62,267 nucleotides of DNA from Patescibacteria group bacterium (GCA_041651095.1 JBAZJV010000007.1:1-62267); one strand, 5' to 3'; counted from the first letter of the stretch, positions 11,246-35,208 are shown. The notes: generated from the letters alone by a model not told the origin. Program-made: numbers and translations.

Positions 11246-11254
11246 CTTGAAACT

Positions 11255-13503: not shown

Positions 13504-13517
13504 AACGGCGGCAAGCG

Positions 13518-14555: not shown

Positions 14556-14649
14556 AAATTAATCTTGGCCAGAAAAATGGCTATTATACGGCTTGAAACC
14601 ATCATTATTAATATAGCACGCGCCGGACAAAAATGTTATAATCAGCTAT

Positions 14650-16739: not shown

Positions 16740-17644
16740 TCGTTCCGGTCCATAACGGCGCCGCGACTTTAAGCGCCTGCTTGGCGTCCTTAATCGCGCA
16801 GACCCGCCCGGCGGACGAACTGATCATCGTCGATAACGCTTCCCGCGACCGGACGAAAGATATCATCGCGGATTTCGCCGGGCGCGACGGTAAAATGCGC
16901 TATATCTTCGAAGCCGGGCCGGGCCGCGGCCGGGCGAGAAACGCCGGCCTGCGCGCGGCCAGCGGAGAAATCATCGCCATGACCGACGCCGATTGCGTCG
17001 TGCCGCCGGATTGGCTGGAACGGCTGATCCGGCCGATCGAGACAAACAATGAAGCGGCGGTCATGGGGTTTGAAACGGATGGAATAGATAATTATTGGTC
17101 GCAACACCGGCAGGCGGCGGACGACCGTTATTTGCGGAGTAAAACTAAAAACGGTTATATTGATTTCCTGGACACCAAAAATTTTGCGATTCGGGCCGAT
17201 ATCTTGAAAGGTCTGGAATTCAATCCGGCGTTAGTCGCCTGTGAAGATCTGGATCTCTTTCTAAGACTTAAAAAAAGAGGCATCGCGATACGATTCCTCC
17301 CGGAATTAAAAGTCCGGCACTGCCACGTTTCCTCCTTCCGGAAATTAGCAAACACGCAATTCAGATATGGCCGCTACTCACGGGCGATCGCCGAGTTCTA
17401 CCGAAACGATGCCGCCCTGCGCGATTATCTGCCGATTCCAGAAAATGCGCATCTTAGCGTCGGCCGCCGGCTGTTATCCTTATTGCTCTGGTCAATTGAT
17501 GAAATTATCCATCATCCCCAAGACGCGCCCTATAAACTGACCGATGATTGGGCCTGGAAAATCGGCGCGCTTTCTCTCCGATTCAAGCCAATCCGCCTGG
17601 ACCGCCAAGCTGCCGACGGGCGAAGCCGCATTACCGGCCGTTGA
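16709..17644 (+). CDS. GT2 family glycosyltransferase
   Basis: SVIVPVHNG, IVDNASRD, MTDADCVV, CEDLDL. Confidence 0.92.
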   Translation: MLADKNKTSVIVPVHNGAATLSACLASLIAQTRPADELIIVDNASRDRTKDIIADFAGRDGKMRYIFEAGPGRGRARNAGLRAASGEIIAMTDADCVVPPDWLERLIRPIETNNEAAVMGFETDGIDNYWSQHRQAADDRYLRSKTKNGYIDFLDTKNFAIRADILKGLEFNPALVACEDLDLFLRLKKRGIAIRFLPELKVRHCHVSSFRKLANTQFRYGRYSRAIAEFYRNDAALRDYLPIPENAHLSVGRRLLSLLLWSIDEIIHHPQDAPYKLTDDWAWKIGALSLRFKPIRLDRQAADGRSRITGR

Positions 17645-18398
17645 TCAGCTCCAGATAATGTTTCGCTACCGCCGCCGTCGGGCCGTCCTGGATTATCCGC
17701 CCCCGCTCCAAAAGGATGGAACGCTGACAATATTTTTCGATCAGACCGAGGTTATGATTGACCAAGAGGACGGTCGTCCCGCCGCGGATAAATTCTTCCA
17801 TTTGCGCCAAGGCTTTCTTCTGAAAAGCCAGGTCGCCGCCAGCGCCGAAAACCTCATCGAACAAGATGATGTCCGGGCGTTTCTGCCGCAAACATTGGAA
17901 GGTGACGGCAAAACTTAGACGGCTCATCATGCCGGAAGAAAATTGGTAGACCTTGGTATCGATAAAATCCGCCAATTCGGCAAAAGCGACGATATCGCCG
18001 AAACGCAGGTCGATCTCTTTCCGCTTCAGGCCCATCAACAAGCCGACCAAATAGATATTTTCCCTCATTGTCAGGCGATCCCTTAAACCCGAGCTGAAAC
18101 CGTTCAAATAAACGATTTCTCCCCGCGAATCGACGGTACCGGAGTCGGCCTGGTAGATGCCGGCGATCAAGCGCAAAAGAGTGCTCTTGCCCGAGCCATT
18201 CCGGCCGATCAGGCCGATATTTTCCCCGGCGGCGGCAGTAAAAGAAATGTCTTGTAAGACATCCAGGGTCTTATGCGCTTCCTTGCTGCCCAGCAAAGAC
18301 AAGGCGCGCCCTAAGGCGTTATTATTCTTCTTAAAACCGATGTTGAACCGCTTGGAGACGCGATCGACCGATATTTGTTGGGCGGATATGATTTCCAT
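17631..18398 (-). CDS. wzt: Polysaccharide ABC exporter ATPase (Wzt/TagH-like, no C-terminal carbohydrate-binding domain)
   Basis: GRNGSGKST, FSSGMMSRL, FDEVFGAGD; 255 aa. Confidence 0.88.
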   Translation of the reverse strand: MEIISAQQISVDRVSKRFNIGFKKNNNALGRALSLLGSKEAHKTLDVLQDISFTAAAGENIGLIGRNGSGKSTLLRLIAGIYQADSGTVDSRGEIVYLNGFSSGLRDRLTMRENIYLVGLLMGLKRKEIDLRFGDIVAFAELADFIDTKVYQFSSGMMSRLSFAVTFQCLRQKRPDIILFDEVFGAGGDLAFQKKALAQMEEFIRGGTTVLLVNHNLGLIEKYCQRSILLERGRIIQDGPTAAVAKHYLELINGR

Positions 18399-18404
18399 AT
18401 AATT

Positions 18405-19313
18405 TTAGTCTAAAGGATGAAAGCCGTAACGGTCGATCATAAACCCCCGGCTGATATCGGCGGGCGCCAGATCGATAACCGGGCCGGTCTCGTCCCAAAA
18501 AGTCTGATCGCCATAAGTCTCGGCCAGATACCGCCCGTACTTGAAATTCATGAAATGCAAATAAATATATTCGTTGCCGTATTGCCGCCGGTCGGTAACG
18601 CGGCCATTCTGCCAGAACCAGACGGTCGGGTGCTCGGCGCTTCCGTCCCGCCAGCGCATCGGCGTGAGCGGCGTAGTGAATTGTTCCTGCAAATATAATT
18701 TATGGCGATACTTGATGCCTCGCGGCCTAAGCAAATCGTAAAAGAATCTCTGTCGCGGTGACAAGCCGGCCGGGTAACGGAAAACCTCGATCAGCATATC
18801 TTCATCGAAATGGCGATAAACACTATCTTCCAGAACCTGCCGCCAATCCTTGACCCGGCGGAAAGCGTTACGCAACCAAGCAGAGTTCCGAAACAGGGCA
18901 AGATGCCCGGCGATCATCGTGGCGCTGGTACTGAGCACATTATTTTTTAGCACCTCTGCCGTATAGAACCTCCGAATATCGCCGTAGATGACGTCAATAT
19001 CGCCGTAGCCGAAAAAATCATAGCCGCGGATCTCTTCCTCGAATAAAACTCCCCGAGTCGGCTTAAGATCGCACAACTTGTAATCGTCGGCGGGCGCGAA
19101 ATTAATCTGCAGACGCTCGCTGACATGCCGGATATAAGCCGCTCGGGTCATGGACCGGAATATCACATTTTTGATATTAAAAGAATCGACCGGGCAATCA
19201 GTATGGATCAGCCACGTGATATCGGGATTCCTCCGGCAGCTTTCCAGGTAGAACGGGAACCACCGGGGCCACTGGCCGCCAAAATAATCAATGATGATAA
19301 TGATAGATTTCAT
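18405..19313 (-). CDS. DUF6625-like putative glycosyltransferase
   Basis: YFG.WP.WF.FYL.SC..NP, YKLCDLKP..G.LF, FFGYGDIDVIYGD, GHL. Confidence 0.7.
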   Translation of the reverse strand: MKSIIIIIDYFGGQWPRWFPFYLESCRRNPDITWLIHTDCPVDSFNIKNVIFRSMTRAAYIRHVSERLQINFAPADDYKLCDLKPTRGVLFEEEIRGYDFFGYGDIDVIYGDIRRFYTAEVLKNNVLSTSATMIAGHLALFRNSAWLRNAFRRVKDWRQVLEDSVYRHFDEDMLIEVFRYPAGLSPRQRFFYDLLRPRGIKYRHKLYLQEQFTTPLTPMRWRDGSAEHPTVWFWQNGRVTDRRQYGNEYIYLHFMNFKYGRYLAETYGDQTFWDETGPVIDLAPADISRGFMIDRYGFHPLD

Positions 19314-19322
19314 AGCCTCGGC

Positions 19323-20108
19323 TTACACTAGTTCGGCGAACCTTTTTTTATATCTATTGAAAATGAAGCAGCCGGCGGAAAACAAGACGATGCTAAAGAT
19401 AAGCATGGCCACGATCATCCAAAGCGGCGGACAAGACGAATAGATTACGACGCGACGGGAAATTTCCAAAAAATAGAATAGCGGATTGGCGAGATTGGCG
19501 ATATAAACGCGGCTGCCGGCCGTAACCGCGTAAAAAATCGGCGTCACCAAAAATAAAAGCTGGGTAAAAATAGTCCAAACGTTATCTAAATCAGTGATAT
19601 AGACGCCGATAGTCGCGAAGATCAAAGAGATGCCGATGACCAGGCAAAAAAATACGGCAAAAATAAGAGGATAAAATAAGAGGCCGGTCAGAGGAATGTG
19701 CCAATACACGAGGAAACCAATGATTATCACCAACTCGGAAATATGGGACAAGGCCGCCTGGAATACAGCCGAAACGACTAAGACTTCCGGCGCGATGCTG
19801 TTCATGGATTTGATATAGTCCACGTTACCGGTGATCGCCCGGATGGAATTGACTGTCGCCTGACGAAAAAAATTCAAACCCGCGATACCCATAAACAAAT
19901 AGACCGGATAATCCTTGATGCCCGTATCAATGAAGGCGGTCTGCCGGATAAACAGGATGAGGGCGAATGAAACCAGAGGATTGAGCAGATACCACAAATT
20001 ACCCAGATAGCTGCCTTCGGTCCGGAGAGTAAAATTAGACTTAGCCAAAGAAAAACTGATCAGGATAATGCTCTTAATTTTCGTCCATCGATTTTTAGGA
20101 ATAAGCAC
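19323..20108 (-). CDS. wzm: Polysaccharide ABC exporter permease (Wzm)
   Basis: SYLG.LWYLLNPL, FLVTPIFY, NPL; about six TMs; upstream of wzt. Confidence 0.88.
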   Translation of the reverse strand: MLIPKNRWTKIKSIILISFSLAKSNFTLRTEGSYLGNLWYLLNPLVSFALILFIRQTAFIDTGIKDYPVYLFMGIAGLNFFRQATVNSIRAITGNVDYIKSMNSIAPEVLVVSAVFQAALSHISELVIIIGFLVYWHIPLTGLLFYPLIFAVFFCLVIGISLIFATIGVYITDLDNVWTIFTQLLFLVTPIFYAVTAGSRVYIANLANPLFYFLEISRRVVIYSSCPPLWMIVAMLIFSIVLFSAGCFIFNRYKKRFAELV

Positions 20109-20246
20109 AAGAAATTTTCTTAAATTTAGAAAGATATTAAAATTATAGCAAATACAGAGTATTTAGACTACTTGATAAAAACGGCCTATCGGGGCGATCG
20201 CTTATTGCTCAATCGCCTGAAAATAGCTAAAATATCATAAAAAGAT

Positions 20247-20927
20247 ATGCTTGCAAACATTAGAAAGTCGGCTCTGGATTTGACGGCAAAAATAAAAAAA
20301 CAACTGATTTTAAAACGGCTTGAAAAGAGGCGCCGAAATCGGGATATCCAGCTCAGCGCCGGCGAGATTTACGCCGTGCAAGCCGCTATCAAGGCGCCGG
20401 CTAATTTTTTGGTCTTCGGATTGGGCTACGACTCCGAACTATGGCATCAAGCCAATCCGGGCGGGCGGACCGTCTTTCTGGAAGACGATCCGGAGTGGTT
20501 CGAAAAAATCAAAAAAGAAAGCCCGCGGCTGGAAGCTTACTTGATAAAATACACGACCCGGATAGATGATTGGCGAGAACTGCTGGAACAACCGGAAAAG
20601 CTGTCCATTTCCTTGCCGCCGGCTATCGCCGCCGGGTGCTGGGACTTAATCTTGATCGACGGCCCGGCCGGCTGGCAAAGCGGCCAGCCGGGACGGATGC
20701 AAAGTATTTATCTGGCATCACGGCTGATCAAACCGGGAGGGGATGTCTTCGTGCATGATTGCGACCGGGAAGTCGAAAACCGATACGCCGATAAATATCT
20801 GGGCCGACAGAATATCATAGGAGAAACGACCGGCCGGGCGCTGTTGCGCCACTATCGTCCCGGTCAGAATCCGACGACCGAGATTAGGCAGCGGCGAGCA
20901 TCGCCAAAAGACGAAAATTCCCAATAA
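20247..20927 (+). CDS. DUF579/GXMT-IRX15-like polysaccharide O-methyltransferase
   Basis: NFLVFGLGYDS.LW..NPGGRTVFLEDD..W, WDLILIDGP.G....PGRM..IY, DVFVHD..R match plant glucuronoxylan methyltransferase motifs. Confidence 0.8.
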   Translation: MLANIRKSALDLTAKIKKQLILKRLEKRRRNRDIQLSAGEIYAVQAAIKAPANFLVFGLGYDSELWHQANPGGRTVFLEDDPEWFEKIKKESPRLEAYLIKYTTRIDDWRELLEQPEKLSISLPPAIAAGCWDLILIDGPAGWQSGQPGRMQSIYLASRLIKPGGDVFVHDCDREVENRYADKYLGRQNIIGETTGRALLRHYRPGQNPTTEIRQRRASPKDENSQ

Positions 20928-20961
20928 AAAAGGCCGGCGATATTGTCCGGCCCGTTTTTTA

Positions 20962-21183
20962 TCATGAAGAACAAAACGTCTCTTTAATGCTCTCCCGGAT
21001 TTGACGGAAACGCACGGCCCGCTCCGGGTTAAGGCAAGCCGTGGGCGCCGGGTCACGAACCGGGATTTCCAAGCGGCAACCCGATCCGCAACCATAGCAC
21101 AAATACTGTTGGAGAATCAGACGCTTAGGGGGATCGGAAATGATCCCTCCTTGAATCCACCTTACTCCTATATTTACTTCCAT
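20962..21183 (-). CDS. Small Cys-containing hypothetical protein (73 aa, start MEVNIG)
   Basis: GGAGGG before the ATG; fills the gap between glgP and a convergent hairpin; CYGCGSGC motif. Confidence 0.45.
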   Translation of the reverse strand: MEVNIGVRWIQGGIISDPPKRLILQQYLCYGCGSGCRLEIPVRDPAPTACLNPERAVRFRQIRESIKETFCSS

Positions 21184-21245: not shown

Positions 21246-22925
21246 TTAAGCTATCGAATAAGCATCGCGTTGATATTCGCGCAGCACCCGCTCCGTATTA
21301 AAACGAGAGGCATTCAAGCTGATAGCGGAGCGCATCATTTCCTGCCAGGCGGCCGGATCGCGATAAAAGAGCGGCACAATTTCCTGCTCCAAGATATCAT
21401 AGAGGCTGGCCGCGTCCCTAGCGTTCTGCGTCTCCGCCTCCGGAACCCGCGTTTCCGCGATCGCCCAGCCGGTCTGACCCTTGATATAACCCTCCGGCCA
21501 CCAGCCGTCCAGGGTGCCCAGCTGCGGCACGCCGTTATGTGCCGCTTTCATGCCGCTGGTCCCCGAAGCTTCATTGGGCGGGAGCGGCGTATTCAGCCAC
21601 AAGTCGACACCGGCGGTCATGATCTTTGCCAATTCCATTTCATAATCTTCCAAGAAAATTAATCTAATCTGGTCACGATATCGGCCGATCAGCCGATGAA
21701 TATCGGCGATCAAACCCTGGCCCTCATCATCGGCCGGATGAGCCTTGCCGCCATAAACGATCTGGAGCGGACCGCATTTTTCCTGGATCCGAAGCAGACG
21801 GTCCATATCTTGCAGCAACAAAGCCGGCCGCTTATAGGGGGCGAAGCGGCGCCCGAAACCAATCGTCATGACTTCCGGCTGCCATTTTAGGCCGGAGCGT
21901 TCCTCGATAAGCGCAAGCAGCCGGCCCTTGGCAACTTGGTGCGCCCGGACAATCTCCGATACAGGAATATCGGCCGCCTGCGCCAGCTTTAGGCTGGCTT
22001 GCCGCCAGCCGGGAATATATTGATCATACAAAGCCTGGAATTCCGGCGCCGTCCAGGACTGAGAATGGACGCCGTTCGTAACCTTATGGATCGTCTGATC
22101 GGGAAACAACTGGACGGCAAGCTGTTGATGCTGGGCGGAAACCGCGTTGGCATAGCCGCTGAAATATAGGGCCACCTGCGTCATATCCACTTCACGGTTA
22201 ATAACCAGCCCGGGCAGCTGCGCCGGAAAATCCGGCTGATAGGCCAGAACCGTATCCAGAGGCAAAAAACTATGGGCCAGCTTAAGCGGCGTATGGGTGG
22301 TAAAGACGCAGGCCTGTCTGGTCTCAATGAGTTTCGCCTGGTCATCCTGCGCCGTCGCCGCCAGGAAGCGGTCGACCGCGACAAAAGCACCATGACCTTC
22401 GTTGATATGATACTTATCGACCCGGTAACCGAGGGCTTGCAAGGCCGCGAAGCCGCCCCGGCCCAAAATGATCGTCTGAAGCAGTCGGTAGGTCTCATCG
22501 CCGCCATAGAGCTGGCCGGTCAGACCGCGATACTCCGCCTTATTTTCCGGATATTTAGTATCCAGGAAATAGACCGGGACTTCCCCGCCGCTCGCGCTTT
22601 TGATCAGATAGCGCCAAACCCCTATTCGAACGCGGTTAGAAGCGATATTGATCCAAAATGAAATATCCAACTTTTCCAATAATGAAAAATCATAGTCGGC
22701 GTCCGGCGTCTCGTCCTGTTCGCCGGCCGGGTTGATCGTCTGCTCGAAATATCCTTGGTCGCTCAAGAGCGTGACACCGACCATCGGCAACCCGATGTCC
22801 GCAGCGGAACGCAAAATATCTCCGGCTAAGACACCGAGGCCGCCGGAATAGGACTTGATGCCGTCTTCCAGGGCGATCTCCATGCTGAAATAGGCGACGA
22901 CCGGAAGATTTGGCGAATGAGGCAT
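21246..22925 (-). CDS. glgP: Alpha-glucan (glycogen/starch) phosphorylase, short form
   Basis: YFSMEIAL..YSGGLGVLAGD, NEGH, FTTHTP, RRFAPYKR, PLP motif EASGTSGMKAA. Confidence 0.95.
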   Translation of the reverse strand: MPHSPNLPVVAYFSMEIALEDGIKSYSGGLGVLAGDILRSAADIGLPMVGVTLLSDQGYFEQTINPAGEQDETPDADYDFSLLEKLDISFWINIASNRVRIGVWRYLIKSASGGEVPVYFLDTKYPENKAEYRGLTGQLYGGDETYRLLQTIILGRGGFAALQALGYRVDKYHINEGHGAFVAVDRFLAATAQDDQAKLIETRQACVFTTHTPLKLAHSFLPLDTVLAYQPDFPAQLPGLVINREVDMTQVALYFSGYANAVSAQHQQLAVQLFPDQTIHKVTNGVHSQSWTAPEFQALYDQYIPGWRQASLKLAQAADIPVSEIVRAHQVAKGRLLALIEERSGLKWQPEVMTIGFGRRFAPYKRPALLLQDMDRLLRIQEKCGPLQIVYGGKAHPADDEGQGLIADIHRLIGRYRDQIRLIFLEDYEMELAKIMTAGVDLWLNTPLPPNEASGTSGMKAAHNGVPQLGTLDGWWPEGYIKGQTGWAIAETRVPEAETQNARDAASLYDILEQEIVPLFYRDPAAWQEMMRSAISLNASRFNTERVLREYQRDAYSIA

Positions 22926-22926
22926 A

Positions 22927-23496
22927 TTAATTTTCTCTAGCCTTCTTTATTAACTCCTTGAATTCCTGATAATACGGTTCCAGCTCTTGCCGGCAAATAT
23001 CCAAAGACAGGATATTATGCTTCTCTTCCAGTTTAGCCTCCAGCTGATTCAGGCAACCAGTGAAATCGGCGCCACGGCCGCTAAAAATCATAAACGCGTT
23101 GAAGAAGCCGGCCGGCGACAAGAAACGATAACAGTCGGCATTGGCGCAGATTTCCGCCTCTAAACAAGAATAGGCCGGAACGCCATGGTGCGATTCAATA
23201 CAGTCAACGATTTTGCGAAAAATTTCCGGATCCAGATTGAACGGCCGCAAGAATGCTTGAGCAGCGCGCGAACTTTCCGCCACGTGCTCGGCCAGGCGAT
23301 TGGCGCCAAAACACTGGCCGATCTTCAAATCCATCAGCATCGTGCCCAATAGGACGATTTCTTGATCGGCGCCGAGCTTGGCGGCCAACTCCTGACCCTT
23401 GGCGTTCGCCAGCAAAAAATGCTCTAATTTCGGCATGGCGAATCGGCTGATCTCGGCTAAAGCCAACTCGCGGGACTTATTTATCAGCTCTTCCAT
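22927..23496 (-). CDS. HD-fold protein with degenerate motif
   Basis: LLGTMLMD in place of LLHD, then H.AES, IESHH and ANAD. Confidence 0.55.
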   Translation of the reverse strand: MEELINKSRELALAEISRFAMPKLEHFLLANAKGQELAAKLGADQEIVLLGTMLMDLKIGQCFGANRLAEHVAESSRAAQAFLRPFNLDPEIFRKIVDCIESHHGVPAYSCLEAEICANADCYRFLSPAGFFNAFMIFSGRGADFTGCLNQLEAKLEEKHNILSLDICRQELEPYYQEFKELIKKAREN

Positions 23497-24769: not shown

Positions 24770-25273
24770 TTAGTACCGATAGCGCATTATTGGCTTGGTA
24801 CTAAATTTGAATATAAATTGGCGAAACCAGCGGCGCCAAAATGGCAGCGCGGCTTCCATTAATTGCAGGCGGGCGACCACCATCTTGAATACACCCTCAC
24901 AGAGATCGTCATACCTCCGGAATTCGTACCCCGGGAGCTGCGGATCTATAACGAGTTTAGAGACCTTGGCTTCCCGGTGAGCTACGGCCAACAGCGGCCT
25001 TTTTCTTTTCTCCGCCTGCGTGGCCATTTCCCAGCCCAGACCCAAAGACGGAAAATCACAGATAGCTACTAACAGATCGCATTTATAAACGCAGCCTCTG
25101 ATGTCATAAACATAGACATCATGAGGAATATTCGCGTCTGCCAGCCCCTTAAAAACCAAGACTTGGCAGACCCCCTTAAGACGTTCTTGCAAACGCTCAA
25201 CGCTGGACCGGAATTCAGCGGGAGCATGAGTCAAAGAACAGCCGACATATACCTTGAAATAATAATATTCCAT
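24770..25273 (-). CDS. Nucleoside 2-deoxyribosyltransferase / DNPH1(Rcl)-like N-glycosidase
   Basis: VYVGCSL, CDLLVAICDFPSLGLGWE (cf. DNPH1 PSLGVGYE). Confidence 0.7.
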   Translation of the reverse strand: MEYYYFKVYVGCSLTHAPAEFRSSVERLQERLKGVCQVLVFKGLADANIPHDVYVYDIRGCVYKCDLLVAICDFPSLGLGWEMATQAEKRKRPLLAVAHREAKVSKLVIDPQLPGYEFRRYDDLCEGVFKMVVARLQLMEAALPFWRRWFRQFIFKFSTKPIMRYRY

Positions 25274-25351: not shown

Positions 25352-26146
25352 TTATCTACAGTAATCGGAATAGGGGTGAAAAATGCGATAGCCGTCTTTT
25401 TTCTGCAGCTGCCGCTTGATATAATCCGACCGGATTTCTATGCCCTTAGCATTAAGCGGCGTCCGGCCACTATCGGCCGCCCGATTGAACCAGCGGACGC
25501 CGAGATCTCTTCGGTAGAACGGTATTTTAAAAATTTTGGCGTAAGTCGGAATCTTATATTCCAACATGCCAAAGGTCTTATTCTTGATAGCCGACCACTG
25601 TTCAAAAAATAATCTAGGAAATAGCGGCAAGATAAATAAGCTGGCCCACAATTTCTGCTGGTAACCATAGGCGGATTGCACATGTCGGACAAAATTTAAG
25701 TAATTTTGCCGCCGCCGGCCGCCCGGCTTGGTCCAATGCCATTTTCGCTCTATCGTCTTATCCAAACGTCTGACACCTGAAATAAATATCTCATTCTGCC
25801 GCAAACCAGGGAATTGCTGTTTTAGGCTGCCTAGGACCAAAGCGTCCCACTGGATGACAAGGACGCTGTCCCAATTTGCCAGTCGCCGTCCTTGTTTTTG
25901 ATACCAATCAAGAATTAAGAGATCGCCGTTAATCCATTTCCAAGCGCCGGGGCGATGGCTATAAGATGAAATATAGAATTCATCTAAATATGCGGCTAAC
26001 TTTCTCCGATAAATACGGGCCTGCTTACGGTCGCCGCCGAACAAACCGAAAATCTTCAGCCGAGGATTATGCTTCTTAATCAGCTGTAAATGATTCAGGC
26101 AGATATCCGGCTCCTTATAGAACCAAAATAAGACGGCTAATTTCAT
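25352..26146 (-). CDS. Hypothetical protein, possible GT-A-fold glycosyltransferase
   Basis: N-terminal beta strand (LAVLFWFY), NGD, VIQWDALV acidic motif after a beta strand. Confidence 0.45.
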   Translation of the reverse strand: MKLAVLFWFYKEPDICLNHLQLIKKHNPRLKIFGLFGGDRKQARIYRRKLAAYLDEFYISSYSHRPGAWKWINGDLLILDWYQKQGRRLANWDSVLVIQWDALVLGSLKQQFPGLRQNEIFISGVRRLDKTIERKWHWTKPGGRRRQNYLNFVRHVQSAYGYQQKLWASLFILPLFPRLFFEQWSAIKNKTFGMLEYKIPTYAKIFKIPFYRRDLGVRWFNRAADSGRTPLNAKGIEIRSDYIKRQLQKKDGYRIFHPYSDYCR

Positions 26147-26156
26147 AGTTAACTTA

Positions 26157-26603
26157 TCAAGTCCATTTTTTAATCAACAGCAACCTCGGCTCACCATCGC
26201 CGAAATGATTCTTGTGCCAACTATCGATCATAAAGCCGAGCGATAAGTATAACGATAAGGCGCGGACGTTATGCGGATGGACCATCATCTCGATGCGCGA
26301 ATATGATCTGATCTTCCGTAACATTAAAATCATCGCCTGGCGGGCAAAACCTCGGCCTTGATATTTAGGGGCTATAATCAGACCGTTGATAGTCACGGTC
26401 TGATTTTTCGCTACCCGGTAGACGGCCAGACCGATGGTCAAAGATCTTAACTTAACTAGAAACACATGTTCGCGCTGCAGAGAATATCTGACTTCCGATT
26501 CTTTAAGGCGAGCCGAGTACATTTTGGAATCGGCTCCTTTTTCCAAAGCCAAAATAACTTTCAAATCGGCTATGGTCGCGGGTCGTAATTTTATCTTGTC
26601 CAT
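26157..26603 (-). CDS. GNAT N-acetyltransferase
   Basis: IAPKYQGRGFA (motif A), NVRALSLYLSLGF (motif B). Confidence 0.9.
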   Translation of the reverse strand: MDKIKLRPATIADLKVILALEKGADSKMYSARLKESEVRYSLQREHVFLVKLRSLTIGLAVYRVAKNQTVTINGLIIAPKYQGRGFARQAMILMLRKIRSYSRIEMMVHPHNVRALSLYLSLGFMIDSWHKNHFGDGEPRLLLIKKWT

Positions 26604-26607
26604 AAAA

Positions 26608-27666
26608 TTATTTAATCTTTTCCACCAATCCTTTAGTCGCCGACAATTTTAACATTTCTCCATCCTTGATGATGTCCGTAGCATACTTGGTGCCGGTAAT
26701 GCAGGGTATTTTCATCTCCCGGGAAATAATAGAGGCATGCGATAGGGCGCCGCCGTCATTGGTTACGATACCTTTTACTTTTTTCAAATAAGCAATAATA
26801 TCGGGCTTGGTCATCGGTGTTATTAGAATATCGCCAGATTTGATCTTTTTATAATCGCTGCTGGTCATGACTACGACTGCCCTGCCCTGCGCCGTGCCAG
26901 GGCAAGCCGCCATGCCGCTTAGGTGTTTGACGCTATAGTCTATCTTCAGATGCGCCAGCTCCTTGGCCAAGACTTTGGGAATATCGGAGAGCGCATACTC
27001 GCGGCTTTTCAGATCCTTGGTGATAACCAGATAGCTCTTTGCCCGCGCCCTGATCTTTTTCTGATCCAGCTGGCCGGTTTTCAAAAAGACCAGAAGCTCT
27101 TTCCGCTTCATGCTGGGAGCTAGTTCCAATAGGCGCCGATCATACTTGGCAAACAGCTTGGGAAAACCAATATTCATATCCATATCGGTCGTGTACATCC
27201 TGATCCTTTCAAAACGCTTGCCATAACGCTTTAAAAATTTTTTAATATTGGGCCAGTCGCCGGCGTAGCCCATGAAAACGAAGAGCAAGAAATAGCCGAC
27301 GATTTGGAAGAATATTTTATCTAATTGCAGAAGCTTCTGTTTAATCTCTTGCTTATCTTTTAAACGCTTGATTCCCTTAACTAATTGGTCATGTTGAAAT
27401 ACCAGCTCGTCATACCTATCCATTTTTGCCACGATATCCCGAGGATGCGTAGCCATTTTATTAATCATCCGATATGACCTGTCCACATCCTTTTGTTCCC
27501 GATAGATATTCAGGATCTTGATATCGCCGCAGAATAAGTTATAGCGCAAGGTAGTGCCCACGGTCTTGCGCATTGATTTATAGGCTTCATTGGTGTAATC
27601 GGAATAGAGGAAAGAATATTGCCGGCTGACGACTTTTTGCCAATTAATGTGTTTATTTTTTGCCAT
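26608..27666 (-). CDS. PEP-utilizer mobile (phospho-His) domain protein with helical N-terminus
   Basis: C-terminal GTAQG..GDILITPMT.P..GIVTNDGGALSHASIISREMKIPC; no ATP-grasp or PEP-binding barrel. Confidence 0.88.
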   Translation of the reverse strand: MAKNKHINWQKVVSRQYSFLYSDYTNEAYKSMRKTVGTTLRYNLFCGDIKILNIYREQKDVDRSYRMINKMATHPRDIVAKMDRYDELVFQHDQLVKGIKRLKDKQEIKQKLLQLDKIFFQIVGYFLLFVFMGYAGDWPNIKKFLKRYGKRFERIRMYTTDMDMNIGFPKLFAKYDRRLLELAPSMKRKELLVFLKTGQLDQKKIRARAKSYLVITKDLKSREYALSDIPKVLAKELAHLKIDYSVKHLSGMAACPGTAQGRAVVVMTSSDYKKIKSGDILITPMTKPDIIAYLKKVKGIVTNDGGALSHASIISREMKIPCITGTKYATDIIKDGEMLKLSATKGLVEKIK

Positions 27667-29149
27667 AAGCGATTTTTTTGATTAATCCATGTTTAGCGTC
27701 GACTTCCACGAAGTCGCCATCTTTAAAAATCCTGGTGGCATCTTTAGCGCCAACGATACATGGTATCTGCAATTCCCGAGAAACAATGGCTGCATGCGAG
27801 GTGATGCCTCCTTCATTAGTCACTATGGCGGCCGCTTTTTTCATGGCTGGCAACAGAGCCGGGCTGGTCGTAACGGCAATCATGATATCACCGACGCTAA
27901 CTTTGGATAAATGGCGGACGGAATTCACTGTCCGCACGAAACCTTTAACCAAACCACTATAAGCGATCCGACCTCTGATCAAACTGATTTTGGCATTAGT
28001 TTTATCACGCGGTTTAAGCTCAGCCCAGGCCTTGGTCGCCTGTGCCCCTGTGACAACCCGAGCACTACGGCCAAATTCGGAAATAATCAAACTCCGGCGT
28101 ATCCGTTGCGATAGTTCCCTCCTGTATTTATTTATACCGGATAATAGCAAATGATACTCTGAGGGTAATAAATACTTAATAGCCAAGGGGCTAATGCGCA
28201 AACGCCGAGCTAATTCATCCTGTACGGCTTTGAGGCGAAACAAAGCCTCGGTAAATTCGTATTCGCGCGCCCATTTATAATACCCCAAGTTCCTGATGCT
28301 TTCGAAAACGCCGGTTTCTTTCTTATTCAAGGTTAATTCCTTCACTACGGCTTTGAACATAGCCTGCGTCCGTGAAGCATAGGATGATAAGTCCCTGCTT
28401 TGCTTGACCAGATCCTGTCCGGCTCTTTCTACCAACAGATTCGCTATATATTTTTCGTCCCAAGCTATGCCATCGCATAAGTCATAGGATAGCCATTGAT
28501 ATTCCTTAAGTAGCTTTTTTATCTCCGCTTGATAGCGCTGTCTAATATCTAAGAGACTGGTTTGACAAGTCGCTTTAATCCGCATGGCGAGTTTAATGAT
28601 CGCCAACTCGAATTTCACGTTACGGCCTAGACGCGGTTGATTCGTTAAGATGACATAAAGCTGAGAAAATCTGCCGGCTTGCCCTTTTAGTTTGCGGCGC
28701 AGTATCTTCTCCGCCGTCGTATATAAGACATTGTCTTGCGAATAGCCGGCCAAGATAGCCACCGTCCCGTAGGCATACATCTCACTGAACAATCGGGAAA
28801 AATCCTCAACCCAGTTGATCAATTTCTGGTTGCTGGCGGATCGGATGCGAGCTGTCGTGAAAGACTGCGAATATTTGTTGAGCTTAATGGCCCGTCGGAA
28901 AGCGGTTTCCAGGGAACGGGTAAAAACAGCCGGTTTGTCGACTGCTTGACGAGCTAAAGCGTTGGCTGTCTGATTATAGGCCTTTTCAGGATAAAGGTAA
29001 GTATTTTGCCCTTGTTCGTAATAATTCACGCCATAACTGATAGAGCTCTTAGGGAAAACCTTCTTGAAATCAGAAACTGTAGCCTCGGCCGCCAGGTTCA
29101 TGACGTATAGCGAATATGGACGATGTGACCAGATTGTTGTCAGGCGCAT
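27653..29149 (-). CDS. PEP-utilizer mobile (phospho-His) domain protein with long helical N-terminus
   Basis: GLVKG..GDIMIAVTTSP..AIVTNEGGITSHAAIVSRELQIPC. Confidence 0.9.
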   Translation of the reverse strand: MRLTTIWSHRPYSLYVMNLAAEATVSDFKKVFPKSSISYGVNYYEQGQNTYLYPEKAYNQTANALARQAVDKPAVFTRSLETAFRRAIKLNKYSQSFTTARIRSASNQKLINWVEDFSRLFSEMYAYGTVAILAGYSQDNVLYTTAEKILRRKLKGQAGRFSQLYVILTNQPRLGRNVKFELAIIKLAMRIKATCQTSLLDIRQRYQAEIKKLLKEYQWLSYDLCDGIAWDEKYIANLLVERAGQDLVKQSRDLSSYASRTQAMFKAVVKELTLNKKETGVFESIRNLGYYKWAREYEFTEALFRLKAVQDELARRLRISPLAIKYLLPSEYHLLLSGINKYRRELSQRIRRSLIISEFGRSARVVTGAQATKAWAELKPRDKTNAKISLIRGRIAYSGLVKGFVRTVNSVRHLSKVSVGDIMIAVTTSPALLPAMKKAAAIVTNEGGITSHAAIVSRELQIPCIVGAKDATRIFKDGDFVEVDAKHGLIKKIAYGKK

Positions 29150-29185
29150 AAGGGTTAATTAAGCCTAATATTAATATTTTATCAA

Positions 29186-29214
29186 AATAAGCCGTTAAAT
29201 CCTAACGGCTTATT
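29186..29214 (-). terminator. Intrinsic terminator overlapping the trmB stop codon
   Basis: 12-bp stem aataagccgtta/taacggcttatt followed by UUUU on the minus strand. Confidence 0.7.
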
Positions 29215-29953
29215 ACTCTATCTCCAATTTCTTTGCTCCCTCCCAGGATAGTTGATAAGCCTGGCGCATAGCTTCGGCAATCGCCTTGCTTTCAATAATT
29301 ACTGACATCTCTTCAGCATAATTTAAAAAGGCTACCTTGTCATTATAGATATTCACTTCTATGCCCGGCCAGAAAATATCTTTCGGCACGATGACGGTTT
29401 CGGATAATTCCGACTGATCATAACCCTTGTGCTTGCTGTGCCAGCGCGAACCGGCGCCGGCGATGCGCTTGGCCCGGATGTTGAGCGCCATGCGCTTGGC
29501 AATATAGACCGGATCTACCGTCGGATAGTCAAAATAAGCGTCGGTATTCCATTCCAAAATCTCCGACGGCTTTTCTCGCAAAGTGTCATCATAGATATTC
29601 TGGATGGCGCTCTTTCCTTCATAGAACAGGATGCGCGGCTTGGTTTCGCCGCCGTTATACAGCGCTTCCAGTTCCGGCAATTTTTTTTCTATTTCCTGCC
29701 GCAGGTTATTGACCAGCGACAAGAGCTTATCCGGCGCTTCCGCCTTATACCTGGTCTTGTTCCTGATCCGCGACTGCCCAATAACTCCCTTTTCCACCAG
29801 ATAGCCCAGGACGGAATATGTCGTGGTCCGCTGCAGATTAGCTCGCTTGGCAATATTCTGGGCCGAATCCAAGCCGGATTCCAGGGCGGCCAGATAGACC
29901 TTGGCTTCGTTCTGGGAAAAGCCGATTTTCTGCAATAACTGTTCTTTGGTCAT
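29213..29953 (-). CDS. TrmB family transcriptional regulator
   Basis: IGFSQNEAKVYLAAL, HTH, RTTTY.VL..L, FYEG, C-terminal effector domain (IYNDKV, IIESK.IA.AM...Y...W). Confidence 0.92.
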   Translation of the reverse strand: MTKEQLLQKIGFSQNEAKVYLAALESGLDSAQNIAKRANLQRTTTYSVLGYLVEKGVIGQSRIRNKTRYKAEAPDKLLSLVNNLRQEIEKKLPELEALYNGGETKPRILFYEGKSAIQNIYDDTLREKPSEILEWNTDAYFDYPTVDPVYIAKRMALNIRAKRIAGAGSRWHSKHKGYDQSELSETVIVPKDIFWPGIEVNIYNDKVAFLNYAEEMSVIIESKAIAEAMRQAYQLSWEGAKKLEIE

Positions 29954-29965: not shown

Positions 29966-30094
29966 AATGACGAAATATCTTTAGTCATTATATCAAATAT
30001 TTTTGGCTTTGTAAAGCTAAAAAATAATAATTATATAATATTACTCGTCAAAATGACGAATTCCTTTGACATAAAGTTAGATTTATTGCACAAT
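29966..30094. promoter_or_regulatory. Divergent promoters (trmB: TTTACA-17-TATAAT; radical SAM: TTGACA-17-CACAAT) with TGAC-based palindromes
   Basis: Minus-strand boxes at 30010-30015 and 29987-29992; plus-strand boxes at 30066-30071 and 30089-30094; TCGTCA-AAA-TGACGA at 30045-30059. Confidence 0.6.
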
Positions 30095-30146: not shown

Positions 30147-31646
30147 ATGAAAAACTTGGCTGTAACTATTATCCCGCAAGGGGTAATCTATCAGAATACC
30201 GGAGAACAGCGGTTGACCGTCCTGCTCCTGGTTCCCTTCTATAGTTTCTATGAGAAATACGAAACCAGGCGCGCCGGCTGTCCCTTGGGCCTGGAATATC
30301 TGGCGGCCGAACTGGTCCCTCTGGGTTTTAATGTGATTTTCATTGACGCTTGCCTGTCCGCCTATGACCAGCTCACGCCGCAAACTGACGGCACCATTCG
30401 CTACGGCCTGACCGGTGAACAATTAAGGCAAGTGCTTAAACAATTCCAACCGGACCTGGTCGGCATCACCAACCTGTTCAGTAATCAAGCCAAGAATGTG
30501 CTGGCTACGGCGCAGATTGTTCGCGAAATGTACCCACAAACAGTCATTACCGAAGGCGGCGGCCATGCCACCGGCGCAGTGGAAGAAGTCTTGCGCGACG
30601 GACCGGTCGATATCGTTATTCGCGGCGAAGGTATAAAGCAATTCGTATCTCTCTGCCAGGCGCTGGAAGCCAAAGAAGATTATCGTAATGTCTCGGGCCT
30701 CAGTTATTTGGACGGAAACGGAACAATAAAGCATAATCCGGATCAGCCATTCCTGAAAAATCTGGATGAACTGTCGCCGCGCCGCCTAGAAATTCCGTCG
30801 CATCCGATGTATGATACTAATTTCCATACCGGCGGCAGCCGTAAACTGAAACGCGGCCGGCATATCTATGTGATGACCGGTTTCGGCTGCGCGCTGCATT
30901 GCGAATTCTGTTTGTCAGACCTGATGACCGGCGACCGGACGCGTTTTTTCAGCCTGGCTTATCTGGAACGCGAATTTATTCGATATAAAGCAGCTGGATT
31001 CACGGAAATCATTATTGAAGACGACCAATTCCTGGCGGATATAAGGCGCGCGATGGATATTGCCGCGCTCTTACAGAAGCACCGGCTCTATTGGTTTGAG
31101 GAAGGCGGCATCAGCCTGTTCAAGCTGATGCGTCCGGGACCGGGATTGAGCTATAAACAAATAATTGATTGTTTTGCCCAGTCATATTGCTACCGCTTCT
31201 ATTTGGCTATAGAATCGGCCAATCCGGAATCATTGAGCCGCTCCAAGAAACCAGCCATCAATGCCGATACCGATTACGCGGCAGAAATCGTCAGCTATAT
31301 CAAGGCGCAAGGTATCGAAGCGGTCGGCGGTTTCATGATCGGTTTCAAGATCCCGAGTTATGAAGAAAGCTTGGCCGACATTGAACGGACCATCGCGTAT
31401 GCCAAAAAATTAAGAGCGGCCGGACTGGCTTATGTCATGCTGTTTATCTATACCGCTCTGCCCGGTACGCCGGTCTTTGACTACTTGAAGCCATATCTGA
31501 CCGGCTATTCCAGCCACGAGCGCGCCGCTTTCCCGGTCGCCGGACTGACGACTGACGAACTCACTGAAAAAAGATTAGTTTGGCTAGGAGAAATAAATGG
31601 AAAGAGCCAAGAGTTGGCGAAGGAGAAAAGGAATTGGGGGTTGTAA
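30147..31646 (+). CDS. B12-binding-domain radical SAM protein
   Basis: PLGLEYLAA, GGGHAT, GEG, CALHCEFC (CxxxCxxC), EDDQF, IESAN, GGFMIG, PGTP. Confidence 0.92.
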   Translation: MKNLAVTIIPQGVIYQNTGEQRLTVLLLVPFYSFYEKYETRRAGCPLGLEYLAAELVPLGFNVIFIDACLSAYDQLTPQTDGTIRYGLTGEQLRQVLKQFQPDLVGITNLFSNQAKNVLATAQIVREMYPQTVITEGGGHATGAVEEVLRDGPVDIVIRGEGIKQFVSLCQALEAKEDYRNVSGLSYLDGNGTIKHNPDQPFLKNLDELSPRRLEIPSHPMYDTNFHTGGSRKLKRGRHIYVMTGFGCALHCEFCLSDLMTGDRTRFFSLAYLEREFIRYKAAGFTEIIIEDDQFLADIRRAMDIAALLQKHRLYWFEEGGISLFKLMRPGPGLSYKQIIDCFAQSYCYRFYLAIESANPESLSRSKKPAINADTDYAAEIVSYIKAQGIEAVGGFMIGFKIPSYEESLADIERTIAYAKKLRAAGLAYVMLFIYTALPGTPVFDYLKPYLTGYSSHERAAFPVAGLTTDELTEKRLVWLGEINGKSQELAKEKRNWGL

Positions 31647-31808: not shown

Positions 31809-32936
31809 TCACTTCAATGCCTTAATAATAAAAGTTCCATTAGTGTTGGTTATTAAGTTATCTTTAGATAAAATAAGTCTATTTATGTCTAAATTTTTTT
31901 GACAATAATCTATATCTATTTTGTAATTTGAAAATTCATTAATAATAAGATAACATCCATTAAATAAATCGAAATTAAAATTATCAAAGTCAATCGCGAA
32001 TCTATCAAATATGGCCACTGCGCTAATGTTTAAAAAACATTTTAATGAATTCTGAACTCTCCATATTAATTGTTTAATATCCATGCAATACAACCCAGAT
32101 AAATCTAAATAAATTACTAATCCAATTCTGGAATTAATATACTGTTGGGACTTATCGATCAACTTACTGTGAATCGATCCCATAATATCTTCTACAACTA
32201 TTTTAACTACTAAGCCGCCTTCTTTAATTTCATAAACAAAGCCGGTATAGGCATCGCAAGCGAGAGCGCCATCATGCACCCTTACCTCGTCCGGGAATGA
32301 AGCGCAAATATCGGTAATAGATGAATCGGATAAAATATTTTTTATAAAAATTTGAAATGATTTTTTGGGACAAACTATTATTGTTTTATTGTTGTATTTA
32401 TTTAATATATCCGGCCTGTTTTCTAACAAAGAATTAATTGCTACTAGCCCTAGCTCTTCTTTAGTTTCCCAATGAATTTTAGTAACATCAATATTATATT
32501 TTTCATTACCTAAATATAACAATGCTTCTGGATTAATCGTGTGCGATTCAGAATACAACTCTAACTTACAGCCATTTCGAGACAGCTCCCCTAAAACTGC
32601 TACTTCTGACATTATATCCTTATCAAACTTAGAAAATCGTCTAAAAAGTTCTTTCTTGCTCTTAAGTGACCCGCCATAATTAACATTTATATCATGCAGA
32701 TCTCTGCCAAACATCAGAATATATAGCCCATGACAAAGCCCAAGTGTATGATTAGTTTCCAATAAATTTATTGGATTTGATCCTTTAAAATAATTTATAA
32801 AATAATTAAAATATTCTTCAATTTGTCTCTGTGGTAGAGGGTAATTGTGGTTATGTATCTTGAGTATCTCACAAATTTGTTTATAGTTATATTGTTTATG
32901 CATATGTGTAAACATTATATCATTTTCACTAAACAA
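31809..32936 (-). CDS. Hypothetical protein, PD-(D/E)xK nuclease-like fold candidate (AT-rich)
   Basis: SEVAV..L...G helix, PE, IDVTK, later K..QY..LVIYLD pattern. Confidence 0.45.
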   Translation of the reverse strand: MFSENDIMFTHMHKQYNYKQICEILKIHNHNYPLPQRQIEEYFNYFINYFKGSNPINLLETNHTLGLCHGLYILMFGRDLHDINVNYGGSLKSKKELFRRFSKFDKDIMSEVAVLGELSRNGCKLELYSESHTINPEALLYLGNEKYNIDVTKIHWETKEELGLVAINSLLENRPDILNKYNNKTIIVCPKKSFQIFIKNILSDSSITDICASFPDEVRVHDGALACDAYTGFVYEIKEGGLVVKIVVEDIMGSIHSKLIDKSQQYINSRIGLVIYLDLSGLYCMDIKQLIWRVQNSLKCFLNISAVAIFDRFAIDFDNFNFDLFNGCYLIINEFSNYKIDIDYCQKNLDINRLILSKDNLITNTNGTFIIKALK

Positions 32937-32987
32937 AAACAGGCATCTCTGCCCGTTAATGTTTAATGAGCTTTTTTTGGAGTTTGG

Positions 32988-33806
32988 TTATAAATATGGC
33001 TCTTCCGAAATTCTTTTAACTTCCGGAATCAGATAATCTTTAAAAATATGCTTATATAAATCTAATAATTTACCATATACCGTCTGGCAATATTTTCTTA
33101 CTTCTTCACCGTCCGGCATCAAAGGCTCAACAACATTACCGCTATCCGATTCATAAACAAAACAAGAAAACCCTTTTAAGCCAGAGCGATGCGATATGTC
33201 ATTCCTTAACGTGTTTAATTTTACAATCCACTCATTTATTTCTTTATCAAAAAAACCTGCTAACTCATGATTACCATTACTCCTCATCAAATCAGTCGTA
33301 TTTTCGCCTAATTTTCTACCAAATATAAGCGCCTCCCTATCAACACCGCCAACTTTCAAGTAAGAATATAAATGTTTTAAAAGCTGAATAATAATATCTA
33401 GATTACTTCTGACCTGGAATATAAATGACTCTGTTTCATTTATTAACACCTCATTTATTAGTTCAGCCTTGGGACACATTCCACTTTTTATCATCTCAGA
33501 ATATTGTGTCATTTCTTCTGGACTCGGTCCGCCTCCAATTTCGCTTTCAATCAAAAACAAGCTATATCTCGCGGCACGGACTTTATGAAAACAGTCTTCA
33601 ACTTTCTGTCTAAGGTTATTGTGCAAATCTATAACTTTTACTGGCTTACCCGTTTTCAATTCATCTATAGTTTTGGGCGCGACATAGAATCCTTCAATTG
33701 GTATTTCAAAAATACCGTAAATTTCATCATAATACGAATCAAGTTTTCTGTCTGAAAATAATATTCTGCATTTATTTTTATCTCTTACAATTTTATACCG
33801 GCTCAT
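32988..33806 (-). CDS. HEPN-domain protein (Cthe_2314-like) (AT-rich)
   Basis: ETESFIFQVRSNLDII helix and RNDISH (Rx4H) motif. Confidence 0.7.
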   Translation of the reverse strand: MSRYKIVRDKNKCRILFSDRKLDSYYDEIYGIFEIPIEGFYVAPKTIDELKTGKPVKVIDLHNNLRQKVEDCFHKVRAARYSLFLIESEIGGGPSPEEMTQYSEMIKSGMCPKAELINEVLINETESFIFQVRSNLDIIIQLLKHLYSYLKVGGVDREALIFGRKLGENTTDLMRSNGNHELAGFFDKEINEWIVKLNTLRNDISHRSGLKGFSCFVYESDSGNVVEPLMPDGEEVRKYCQTVYGKLLDLYKHIFKDYLIPEVKRISEEPYL

Positions 33807-33885: not shown

Positions 33886-33960
33886 TGGAGCGGGTAACGG
33901 GAATTGAACCCGTCTCTCGAACTTGGCAAGCTCGCATAATAGCCACTATACGATACCCGC
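33886..33960 (-). tRNA. tRNA-Gly(GCC), CCA encoded
   Basis: GCGGGTA acceptor stem, anticodon loop TTGCCAA, GGTTCAATTCC T-arm. Confidence 0.96.
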
Positions 33961-34634: not shown

Positions 34635-34697
34635 AAATTGAACTTATATTATTACCTACAGTATATAATATAATTCAATTTAACACAAATATATCCG

Positions 34698-34779
34698 TGG
34701 TCCAGGTGGGACTCGAACCCACATGCCTGTCGGCACAGCATTTTAAGTGCTGCGTGTATACCAATTCCACCACTGGACC
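34698..34779 (-). tRNA. tRNA-Leu(TAA), CCA not encoded
   Basis: GGTCCAG/CTGGACC acceptor stem, CAGCA-CTTAAAA-TGCTG anticodon arm, long variable arm, GTTCGAGTC T-loop. Confidence 0.95.
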
Positions 34780-34820
34780 TAATTTCTGTCAGGCGGAAAG
34801 TGTGGGTTCTAACCACATTG

Positions 34821-35208
34821 TGGAGATGATGGGAGTTGAACCCATGTCCAGCCGGGTTGTCTAAATACGTTTACAAGATTAGGCCGATTTCGTTGGTTTA
34901 GCTTTAATCATCGAAAACCGGACAAAAAGCGATTAGAGCGATCTTTCGATTGATTTCGGATAATTCCCGGAAAGAGCGGAAACTGCCTATCCTCATATTG
35001 ATGACACCGGAAACACGACTATGAAGACTCACCATGTCCGATGGTTATAGCCTTATTTATTAGGCCATAACTGGAGCATAACTCGGGGTTAACCAAGTGA
35101 AAGCTCTTGCCGTTTTGGCATTTGTGTTTGTTCAGCCAGTTTAGCGTGATAACTGAGCACGTCCTGAATATTTAGACGAAAATCCAACTGTCGATTCCTT
35201 GCATCCCC
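34821..35208 (-). ncRNA. ssrA: tmRNA; tag ORF 35119-35060 encodes AKTARAFTWLTPSYAPVMA*
   Basis: 5' GGGGATGCAAGGAATCGAC, 3' GGGTTCAACTCCCATCATCTCCA, G3:U Ala identity pair, 4 nt downstream of smpB. Confidence 0.93.

Follow-up and report, generated by a model that had tools for sequence, protein, structure and literature searches.

To our knowledge, two-component dikinases have been described only recently and only in the aromatic catabolism of free-living bacteria. In one such enzyme, HpeHI, the HpeH protein joins a RIF-binding-like domain to a swivel phosphohistidine domain, and HpeI is an ATP-grasp protein; HpeI charges the swivel histidine of HpeH, which is essential and then phosphorylates the bound substrate, and CreHI and phenylphosphate synthase act alike (PMC12167813). 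HpeH appears to dimerise via its helical region, and HpeH, CreH and the PpsA protein of phenylphosphate synthase match at about 45% among themselves (PMC12167813). Here we analyzed a window of 62,267 nucleotides (nt), contig C7 of the 97.8%-complete, 1.02 Mb genome of a Patescibacteria group bacterium. In this window, two overlapping genes below trmB, a gene for a TrmB-family regulator, code for proteins of 498 and 352 amino acids (aa), each with a swivel domain of the phosphoenolpyruvate (PEP)-utilizer type; they are referred to below as the long and the short unit, and are followed by genes for a GNAT acetyltransferase and a GT-A-fold protein. We found that the two proteins are best explained, with a probability of roughly 0.6, as the long and short substrate-binding and phosphohistidine-carrier subunits of a split, ATP-dependent dikinase of the HpeH type. 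Labels beginning with L, G and P denote loci, genomes and proteins of relatives, respectively, and C1, C2 and C12 are other contigs of this genome.

Domain architecture of the long and short units

The long unit consists of a helical substrate-binding domain (approximately residues 1–380) and a C-terminal swivel phosphohistidine domain (PF00391, 90.7 bits, cut-off 23.1) with the motif T444-N-E-G-G-I-T-S-H452. In the short unit, a reduced N-terminal domain of approximately 240 aa precedes a swivel domain (PF00391, 77.8 bits, same cut-off) with the motif T302-N-D-G-G-A-L-S-H310. Both motifs agree with the pattern T-x-x-G-G-x-x-x-H given for HpeH and RPH (PMC12167813). A preliminary description, made from the sequence of the window, held that both proteins keep the catalytic histidine and that both are stand-alone swivel proteins with neither an ATP-grasp domain nor a PEP-binding barrel. 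The first statement agrees with the motifs GGITSHA and GGALSHA, and the second with Pfam and NCBIfam searches, in which neither PPDK_N nor PEP-utilizers_C was found in either protein. A cryptic ATP-grasp domain or PEP barrel in the N-terminal domains was ruled out by Pfam, NCBIfam and Foldseek.

An AlphaFold2 model of the long unit, built from 36 homologs, had a pLDDT of 91.5. The top Foldseek matches of this model were the RPH-Lm structures 5fbt, 5fbu and 5hv1 of the Listeria rifampin phosphotransferase RPH (E about 2e-12, TMq 0.58–0.61, about 570 columns), with E 1.9e-12, TMq 0.60 and 579 aligned columns for 5fbt. This match spanned both the helical substrate-binding domain and the swivel domain, and the remaining Foldseek matches were confined to the swivel. 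Also, the long-unit family profile aligned to RPH residues 606–866. It has been reported that Arg666, Glu667 and Lys670 of RPH are needed for the second phosphotransfer (PMC4844700). In the long-unit family, the invariant residues K292 and R295 of the segment YYKWAREYEF, with E296 next to them, sit on the aligned helix that carries these RPH residues, with a register uncertain by one turn: in the HMMER alignment, K292 pairs with R666 and E296 with K670, and an alternative shift of three residues would place R295-E296 on R666-E667.

The short unit was compared with the long unit by hhalign. Its residues 188–352 corresponded to residues 329–498 of the long unit (E 8.7e-36), and its residues 7–187 to residues 1–192 (probability 87%, E 3.9e-6). 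Because of these two results, the 352-aa protein is regarded as a shortened version of the long-unit plan, in which much of the middle helical region is gone. The RPH-like arrangement of a helical domain next to a swivel, earlier ascribed to both proteins, stood for the long unit on the strength of the Foldseek match and in part for the short one. The 352-aa family was small and tight: 14 clusters were found among 5.8 billion proteins, and an exhaustive search yielded 17 representatives. A recent tandem duplication as the origin of both units was rejected, because their swivels are only approximately 40% identical and other paralogs are equally close.

Carrier units and the candidate phosphate donor

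The genome contained 18 PEP-utilizer domains. One belonged to a canonical PEP synthase of 803 aa, the sole protein here with PPDK_N and PEP-utilizers_C together, and the other 17 were stand-alone units, each of which had the histidine. Nine units are located at 100–117.5 kb of contig C1, seven of them in tandem (100–111.5 kb) and two more at 114–117.5 kb. The only stand-alone PPDK_N open reading frame (ORF) of the genome (312 aa, 332 bits; Table 1) lies 12 nt past the last of these C1 units. No PEP-utilizers_C domain was found in the genome outside the PEP synthase, and no HPr was found in the genome. Among 13 genomes of the genus, each had one PEP synthase, eleven had exactly one stand-alone ATP-grasp gene (range 0–1), and the number of units varied from 0 to 17. 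Wherever its surroundings were visible (eight genus genomes), the stand-alone ATP-grasp gene adjoined a unit. A literature search of limited reach found no published work on such expansions in Patescibacteria.

In G113, which belongs to the same genus, an ORF of 1130 aa joins an ATP-grasp domain (56.6% identical to that of this genome), a short unit and a long unit. This triple fusion is Rosetta-stone evidence that the ATP-grasp protein serves these units. The proposal that the phospho-donor is supplied in trans fits both this natural fusion and the single stand-alone ATP-grasp gene. In the split dikinase suggested here, the sole stand-alone ATP-grasp protein would bind ATP and phosphorylate the swivel histidine, His452 or His310, with release of AMP and Pi; the swivel would then return to its own helical domain and hand the phosphate to the bound acceptor, predicted to be a small molecule.

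It is highly improbable that the full-length PEP synthase charges the swivel histidines, from ATP or PEP, in place of the stand-alone ATP-grasp protein. The closest swivel to those of the units is the one of PEP synthase (8a8e, about 55% over 107 residues), and every one of the 13 genus genomes examined has this enzyme. However, this enzyme has its own swivel in cis, the fusion of ATP-grasp, short and long units favours the stand-alone module, and stand-alone ATP-grasp genes adjoin units both in the eight genus genomes and in loci L094/L095.

Pairing and fusion of long and short units

Orthologs of the 498-aa and 352-aa proteins were adjacent, with the order kept, in the window, in L013/L014 and in L085 (the G073 contig). 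In L087, the 352-aa ortholog lies two genes away from a different long unit. Also, contig C2 of this genome carries another short unit (363 aa) and long unit (513 aa), approximately 0.7 kb apart on a shared strand. Some of the recurring pairs (L013, L015, L084) share synteny of the variable segment and are therefore not independent observations. Fusions were found as well. Two or more swivel domains were present in 29 of the 151 relatives examined, most of which join a long unit to a subsequent short one with about 220–250 aa ahead of its swivel. In at least seven fusions (P0060, P0061, P0062, P0064, P0066, P0074 and P0079), the unit that comes after the long one has an N-terminal domain of 220–250 aa; several of these second units weakly match the profile of the 352-type N-terminal domain. 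Two long-short fusion proteins are located in arrays with a stand-alone ATP-grasp (PPDK_N) gene (L094/L095). Such fusions in relatives fit the partnership of the two histidine-domain proteins envisaged in the preliminary description, and the long and short units probably act as a pair.

Several other proteins were observed among the relatives. In P0075, a unit is fused to an HAD phosphatase domain. In P0255, an N-terminal domain of the 352 type precedes swivel sequence that was matched in three pieces; these make up a whole swivel and at least one further swivel, which an insertion appears to interrupt. A protein of approximately 505 aa without Pfam match occurs near 352-aa orthologs at L084:7677-9191 and L093:2112-3638 (56% identity between the loci) and is absent from this genome. 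In addition to the patatin-like gene that follows the triple fusion of G113, a patatin gene lies downstream of 352-aa orthologs in L086 and L091.

By analogy with the apparent dimerisation of HpeH, a heteromer of a long and a short unit is plausible as a model. A more far-reaching version of it, a dikinase that works only as a heteromer, has two swivel histidines, is charged by a hub ATP-grasp protein and forms a general, exchangeable module of Patescibacteria and DPANN, is tentative and on the whole unlikely. In such an enzyme, the two sites would alternate or phosphate would be handed over from histidine to histidine, and the short unit would lack arm subdomains; the pairs, sometimes fused (also with the ATP-grasp domain), would be carried downstream of an autoregulated trmB gene at a hot spot linked to tmRNA.

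Transfer from histidine to histidine would also be a feature of regulatory phosphocarriers or protein kinases, comparable to VadK or to the phosphotransferase system (PTS), whose helical domains would dock proteins. Two swivels per polypeptide in many relatives, including the tandem swivels of P0255, are consistent with such a role, and so is the expansion of the family in a genome poor in metabolic pathways. Also, a PPDK-derived non-canonical kinase, VadK of M. tuberculosis, is documented (PMC13400623), and the Thr two residues before the histidine of the long unit corresponds to a regulatory site in PEP synthase, PPDK and Enzyme I (PMC12167813). However, in its fold the long unit matches the RPH domain that binds small molecules, conserved basic and acidic residues occur on the catalytic helix, and the genome has neither HPr nor a spare PEP-binding domain. 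The characterised proteins with this pair of domains (RPH, HpeH, CreH, PpsA of phenylphosphate synthase, PigC) all act on small molecules (PMC12167813; NCBIfam names). We consider a regulatory or protein-kinase role doubtful and continue with a dikinase acting on small molecules as the preferred interpretation.

Comparison with known systems

The split dikinase proposed here resembles HpeHI, CreHI and PpsAB in that an RPH-like helical domain and a C-terminal swivel with the motif T/S-x-x-G-G-x-x-x-H are found in one protein and an ATP-grasp protein of about 310–340 aa is separate. The possible dimerisation of HpeH through its helical region would also parallel the long/short pair. In contrast to HpeHI, a single ATP-grasp gene on a different contig stands against 17 units (one to many), and long and short units form a pair that is also found fused. 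The proteins differ from HpeH in size (about 500 and 352 aa versus 71 kDa), and the host belongs to Patescibacteria, where no context of aromatic catabolism was seen. Two of these features, the recurrent long/short pair (also fused) and the single ATP module encoded elsewhere, are undescribed for the HpeHI type. A novel phosphorelay had been considered earlier; this idea gave way to the known two-component dikinase type, whose architecture is seen here (PMC12167813).

RPH-Lm (5FBT, 5HV1; PMC4844700) was the best structural match of the long unit, in which the helix that aligns with R666-E667-K670 has conserved residues of basic and acidic character. Unlike RPH-Lm, the long unit has no fused ATP-grasp domain, the identity is about 15–16%, and nothing points to a rifamycin substrate. 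With PEP synthase and PPDK the locus shares the similarity of its swivels, and the stand-alone ATP-grasp protein of this genome matches PPDK_N; in contrast to these enzymes, the units have no PEP/pyruvate TIM-barrel and no fused ATP-grasp domain, and their N-terminal domain is helical and RPH-like. A relay of the PTS Enzyme I kind differs in requiring components, HPr and a further PEP-utilizers_C domain, that were not found in this genome outside the PEP synthase.

A number of observations weigh against a dikinase of the HpeH type. The ATP-grasp gene is located on a different contig from the 498/352 pair, unlike the adjacent genes of HpeHI, and the swivels are closest to that of PEP synthase, as described above. 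The residue two positions before the histidine is Thr450 in the long unit and Leu308 in the short unit, not Met as in HpeH and RPH. The NCBIfam models for RPH, PRK08296 and PigC align with no more than the last third of the proteins and score far under their cut-offs. For example, the PRK08296 models match only residues 379–492 with 67–89 bits (cut-offs 578–730), and the RPH models score 40–72 bits against the units (cut-offs 999–1700), with 51.7 and 71.9 bits for NF041857 (cut-off 999). Judged by the PRK08296 models and the missing Met, not by direct alignment to HpeH, the units are not close relatives of HpeH. The N-terminal domain of the short unit is only weakly related to that of the long unit (the 87% probability given above), and a catalytic helix in it lacks hhalign support (probability 17%), with spacing that suggests R151/R154 as the counterparts of K292/R295. 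Finally, 498-aa orthologs occur without a short unit in L011 and L015, and 352-aa orthologs without a long unit in L086, L091 and L084; pairing of long and short units is frequent, not obligatory.

Gene order and regulation

The coordinates and tight packing of the four minus-strand genes below trmB (Table 1) were confirmed by ORF calls, overlap and gaps. The long-unit and short-unit genes share a 14-nt overlap, ATGGCAAAAAATAA, read directly from the sequence; 4 nt separate the short-unit and GNAT genes, and 10 nt the GNAT and GT-A-fold genes. The overlap (27653–27666) contains an A6 run, at which a one-base insertion or deletion would join the two ORFs into the long-short form known as single proteins elsewhere. 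A programmed frameshift at this run was judged unlikely, since the frame difference is +1, not -1. From the gene spacing, the GNAT and GT-A-fold genes are probably co-transcribed with the units. The transcription unit may extend to the 167-aa ORF, which is followed by a strong, terminator-like hairpin with a 13-pair stem and a T-rich tail, TATTATTTAA. We take the motifs of this ORF to recall nucleoside 2-deoxyribosyltransferase-like Rossmann proteins, a reading of our own with no library match. The 189-aa protein encoded further downstream may be another accessory of the short unit.

Table 1. Positions of features in the window and of related features elsewhere
Feature	Position	Strand	Description
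trmB	29953-29213	minus	246 aa; TrmB-family regulator
Long unit	29149-27653	minus	498 aa; PF00391 at residues 420-488, E 4.6e-26
Short unit	27666-26608	minus	352 aa; PF00391 at residues 276-346, E 4.8e-22
GNAT acetyltransferase	26603-26157	minus	148 aa; PF00583, E 5.8e-10
GT-A-fold protein	26146-25352	minus	264 aa; no Pfam model
167-aa ORF	24770-25273	minus	no family match; possibly last gene of the transcription unit
Hairpin after 167-aa ORF	24771-24742		terminator-like
Hairpin after trmB	29186-29214	minus	between trmB stop and long-unit start; terminator- or attenuator-like
Palindrome TCGTCAAAATGACGA	30045-30059		divergent promoter region of trmB and radical SAM gene; candidate TrmB operator with half-site 29968-29975
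B12-binding radical SAM enzyme	30147-31646	plus	divergent from trmB
Two-gene islet	31809-33806		375 and 272 aa
tRNA-Gly	33886-33960	minus	upstream boundary of variable segment
tRNA-Leu	34697-34779	minus	upstream boundary of variable segment
tmRNA	34820-35208	minus	upstream boundary of variable segment
189-aa protein	22927-23496	minus	no Pfam match; 63% orthologs directly adjoin 352-aa orthologs in L084 and L087
Phosphorylase-family gene	21246-22925		downstream of the locus
Surface-glycan cluster	8561-21100		same variable segment
S1	7052-8320		synteny within genus resumes
FtsH	5106-7040		synteny within genus resumes
Stand-alone ATP-grasp protein	C1:117539-118477		312 aa; PPDK_N
PEP synthase	C12:16511-18922		803 aa; PPDK_N and PEP-utilizers_C
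Triple fusion of G113	L096:871-4263 (G113:C3)		1130 aa; patatin-like gene after

The TrmB protein has an N-terminal winged helix-turn-helix domain (PF01978, E 2.7e-14, 53.2 bits, cut-off 25.6). Its residues 100–246 had no Pfam match, and the NCBIfam TrmB and TrmBL1 models reach only its N-terminus, far below cut-off. Orthologs of trmB with 82–90% identity are present in L018, L086 and L091, with co-directional genes close behind: maf (34-nt overlap) and then the GT-A gene in L018, and a 352-aa ortholog and then the patatin gene in L086 and L091. The block of trmB and the radical SAM gene is kept in L018 with 76% nt identity. Upstream of trmB, the palindrome TTCGTCA-TTT-TGACGA and one half-site are kept in the window and in all three of these loci. 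In the whole 1.02 Mb genome, a perfect copy of TCGTCA-N3-TGACGA is present only at 30045–30059, where promoter-like hexamers overlap it. A TrmB operator in front of the long-unit gene was ruled out, as the palindrome occurs nowhere but upstream of trmB. These observations suggest that trmB may be autoregulated, perhaps controlling the divergent gene too, and may head an operon with exchangeable cargo. With the only candidate operator in front of trmB itself, TrmB would control the dikinase genes via transcription that starts at the trmB promoter and reads through the hairpin after trmB. The expectation that the operon is regulated in trans was not supported, since no separate site was found. 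The caveat behind it, a terminator between trmB and the operon, stands because a perfect 12-bp inverted repeat with a T-rich tail is present there: arms 29186–29197 and 29203–29214, 12 nt each and 100% complementary, enclose a 5-nt loop and are followed by TTTGAT on the coding strand. This hairpin is absent from the listing of a simple terminator scan and is not kept at the equivalent place in L086, L091 and L018.

Genomic setting

The locus lies downstream of smpB, tmRNA, tRNA-Leu and tRNA-Gly, and synteny with genomes of the same genus returns only at S1 and FtsH. The stretch from smpB-tmRNA to S1/FtsH differs in length: this genome has about 26 kb there, G157 about 9 kb and G155 about 16 kb. 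Because of these differences in size and synteny, the locus is regarded as cargo in a hypervariable tmRNA/tRNA-linked segment. In the proposed dikinase system, the unit genes would be changeable cargo behind an autoregulated trmB in this segment. No meaningful match to PADLOC defence-system models was found. Directly after tRNA-Gly there is a two-gene islet with a GC content of 33% and no Pfam or PADLOC match. The segment also contains a surface-glycan cluster with SIMPL/DUF541, GT2, GT4, two GT8, another GT2, ABC ATPase and DUF6625 genes, and a phosphorylase-family gene lies between this cluster and the locus.

One alternative assigns the acceptor to glycans or sugars, with a function like that of glucan water dikinase (GWD) on storage or envelope polysaccharide and a sugar response through TrmB, in functional concert with the phosphorylase-like gene, the GT-A-fold protein and the glycan cluster. 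Judged by the family name, regulators of the TrmB type usually sense sugars; in L092, too, a phosphorylase-family gene is located downstream of a 352-aa ortholog, at a distance of approximately 1 kb; and the GT2, GT4, two GT8, ABC transporter and DUF6625 genes share the variable segment. Glucan dikinases also have the same histidine-swivel chemistry (PMC13553574). Against this, no carbohydrate-binding module was detected with Pfam or NCBIfam, the helical domain matches RPH and not GWD in Foldseek, and linkage with GT genes is not conserved. A glycan acceptor amounts to the preferred dikinase explanation with its substrate specified; nothing direct stands behind it, and we regard it as improbable.

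The GNAT and GT-A-fold neighbours

The GT-A-like label given earlier to the 264-aa protein was borne out by Foldseek. Its AlphaFold2 model (pLDDT 96.2) gave 184 matches in the PDB (E ≤ 0.001); among the 50 matches listed, every one was a GT-A enzyme. The best TM-scores were obtained with the metal-independent GT14 enzyme C2GnT-L (3otk, TMq 0.59–0.60), and UGGT and glycogenin also matched (E about 1e-6). The protein thus shares the GT-A fold with C2GnT-L (2GAK, 3OTK; TMq up to 0.60) but differs from it in sequence, with an identity of 9–16%. Pfam and NCBIfam searches gave no match. Residues D75, D101, E133, E196 and H257 are invariant in the family, and a clear DXD is missing.

Neighbourhood surveys were centred on orthologs of the 498-aa, 352-aa, 264-aa, GNAT and TrmB proteins. 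The 264-aa family was widespread, being found in Patescibacteria, cyanobacteria, proteobacteria, Desulfarculaceae and Omnitrophota. In its 66 loci, one swivel-domain gene was found within 8 kb, and this was a canonical PEP synthase. In other phyla, its neighbours are GT2, GT4, GT87, sulfotransferase and Wzx flippase genes. In the closest relative (L018, 71% identity), the 264-aa ortholog follows trmB-maf with no dikinase units between, and in G092 of the same genus it follows NUDIX, SDR, methyltransferase and GNAT genes. Neighbours of 265 aa in L015 and L093 were considered as homologs and rejected, since BLAST found no similarity. The 264-aa protein is probably a polysaccharide glycosyltransferase separate from the dikinase units and most likely serves surface-glycan synthesis. 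As for the GNAT gene, a 62% ortholog adjoins a 497-aa long-unit ortholog in L015/L016, and the orthologs in G113, G119 and G121 are away from any long unit.

The preliminary description had combined the four genes into an effector-inducible system for small-molecule modification or detoxification by phosphorylation, acetylation and glycosylation under TrmB. We found that the complete four-gene set recurs nowhere in the neighbourhood surveys, and a conserved four-gene operon was thereby ruled out. The four genes occur in 2, 16, 2 and 4 of 151 genomes sampled from the order, with largely independent distributions; because they are rare and independently distributed, the proposed system fails the recurrence test set for it in that description. 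The tight spacing, the gene overlap and the common strand are what such a system would predict, and RPH is an antibiotic kinase (PMC4844700). Also, the GNAT ortholog next to the 497-aa ortholog and the trmB orthologs of L086 and L091, each with a 352-aa ortholog immediately downstream, link some of its members. However, the 264-aa family has no unit nearby in its 66 loci, is found in polysaccharide clusters of other phyla and in its closest relatives follows other genes; the GNAT orthologs of G113, G119 and G121 are not near long units; and the TrmB operator is missing before the 498-aa gene. A single system with three modification chemistries is thus improbable, and the GNAT and GT-A-fold genes are best treated as unrelated neighbours of the dikinase units.

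Implications

The split dikinase suggested for the long and short units would place a chemistry known from two-component dikinases in an ultra-small, symbiont-type genome, with 17 carrier units per one ATP module. A tempting false lead is also removed, as a detoxification cassette should not be inferred from the GNAT and GT-A genes next to the units. If the long and short units form a heteromer, the enzyme architecture would be new to this superfamily and would offer a concrete handle on what Patescibacteria phosphorylate. If, further, the heteromer is a general exchangeable module, these reduced cells would phosphorylate whichever scavenged metabolite or envelope component their current host supplies.

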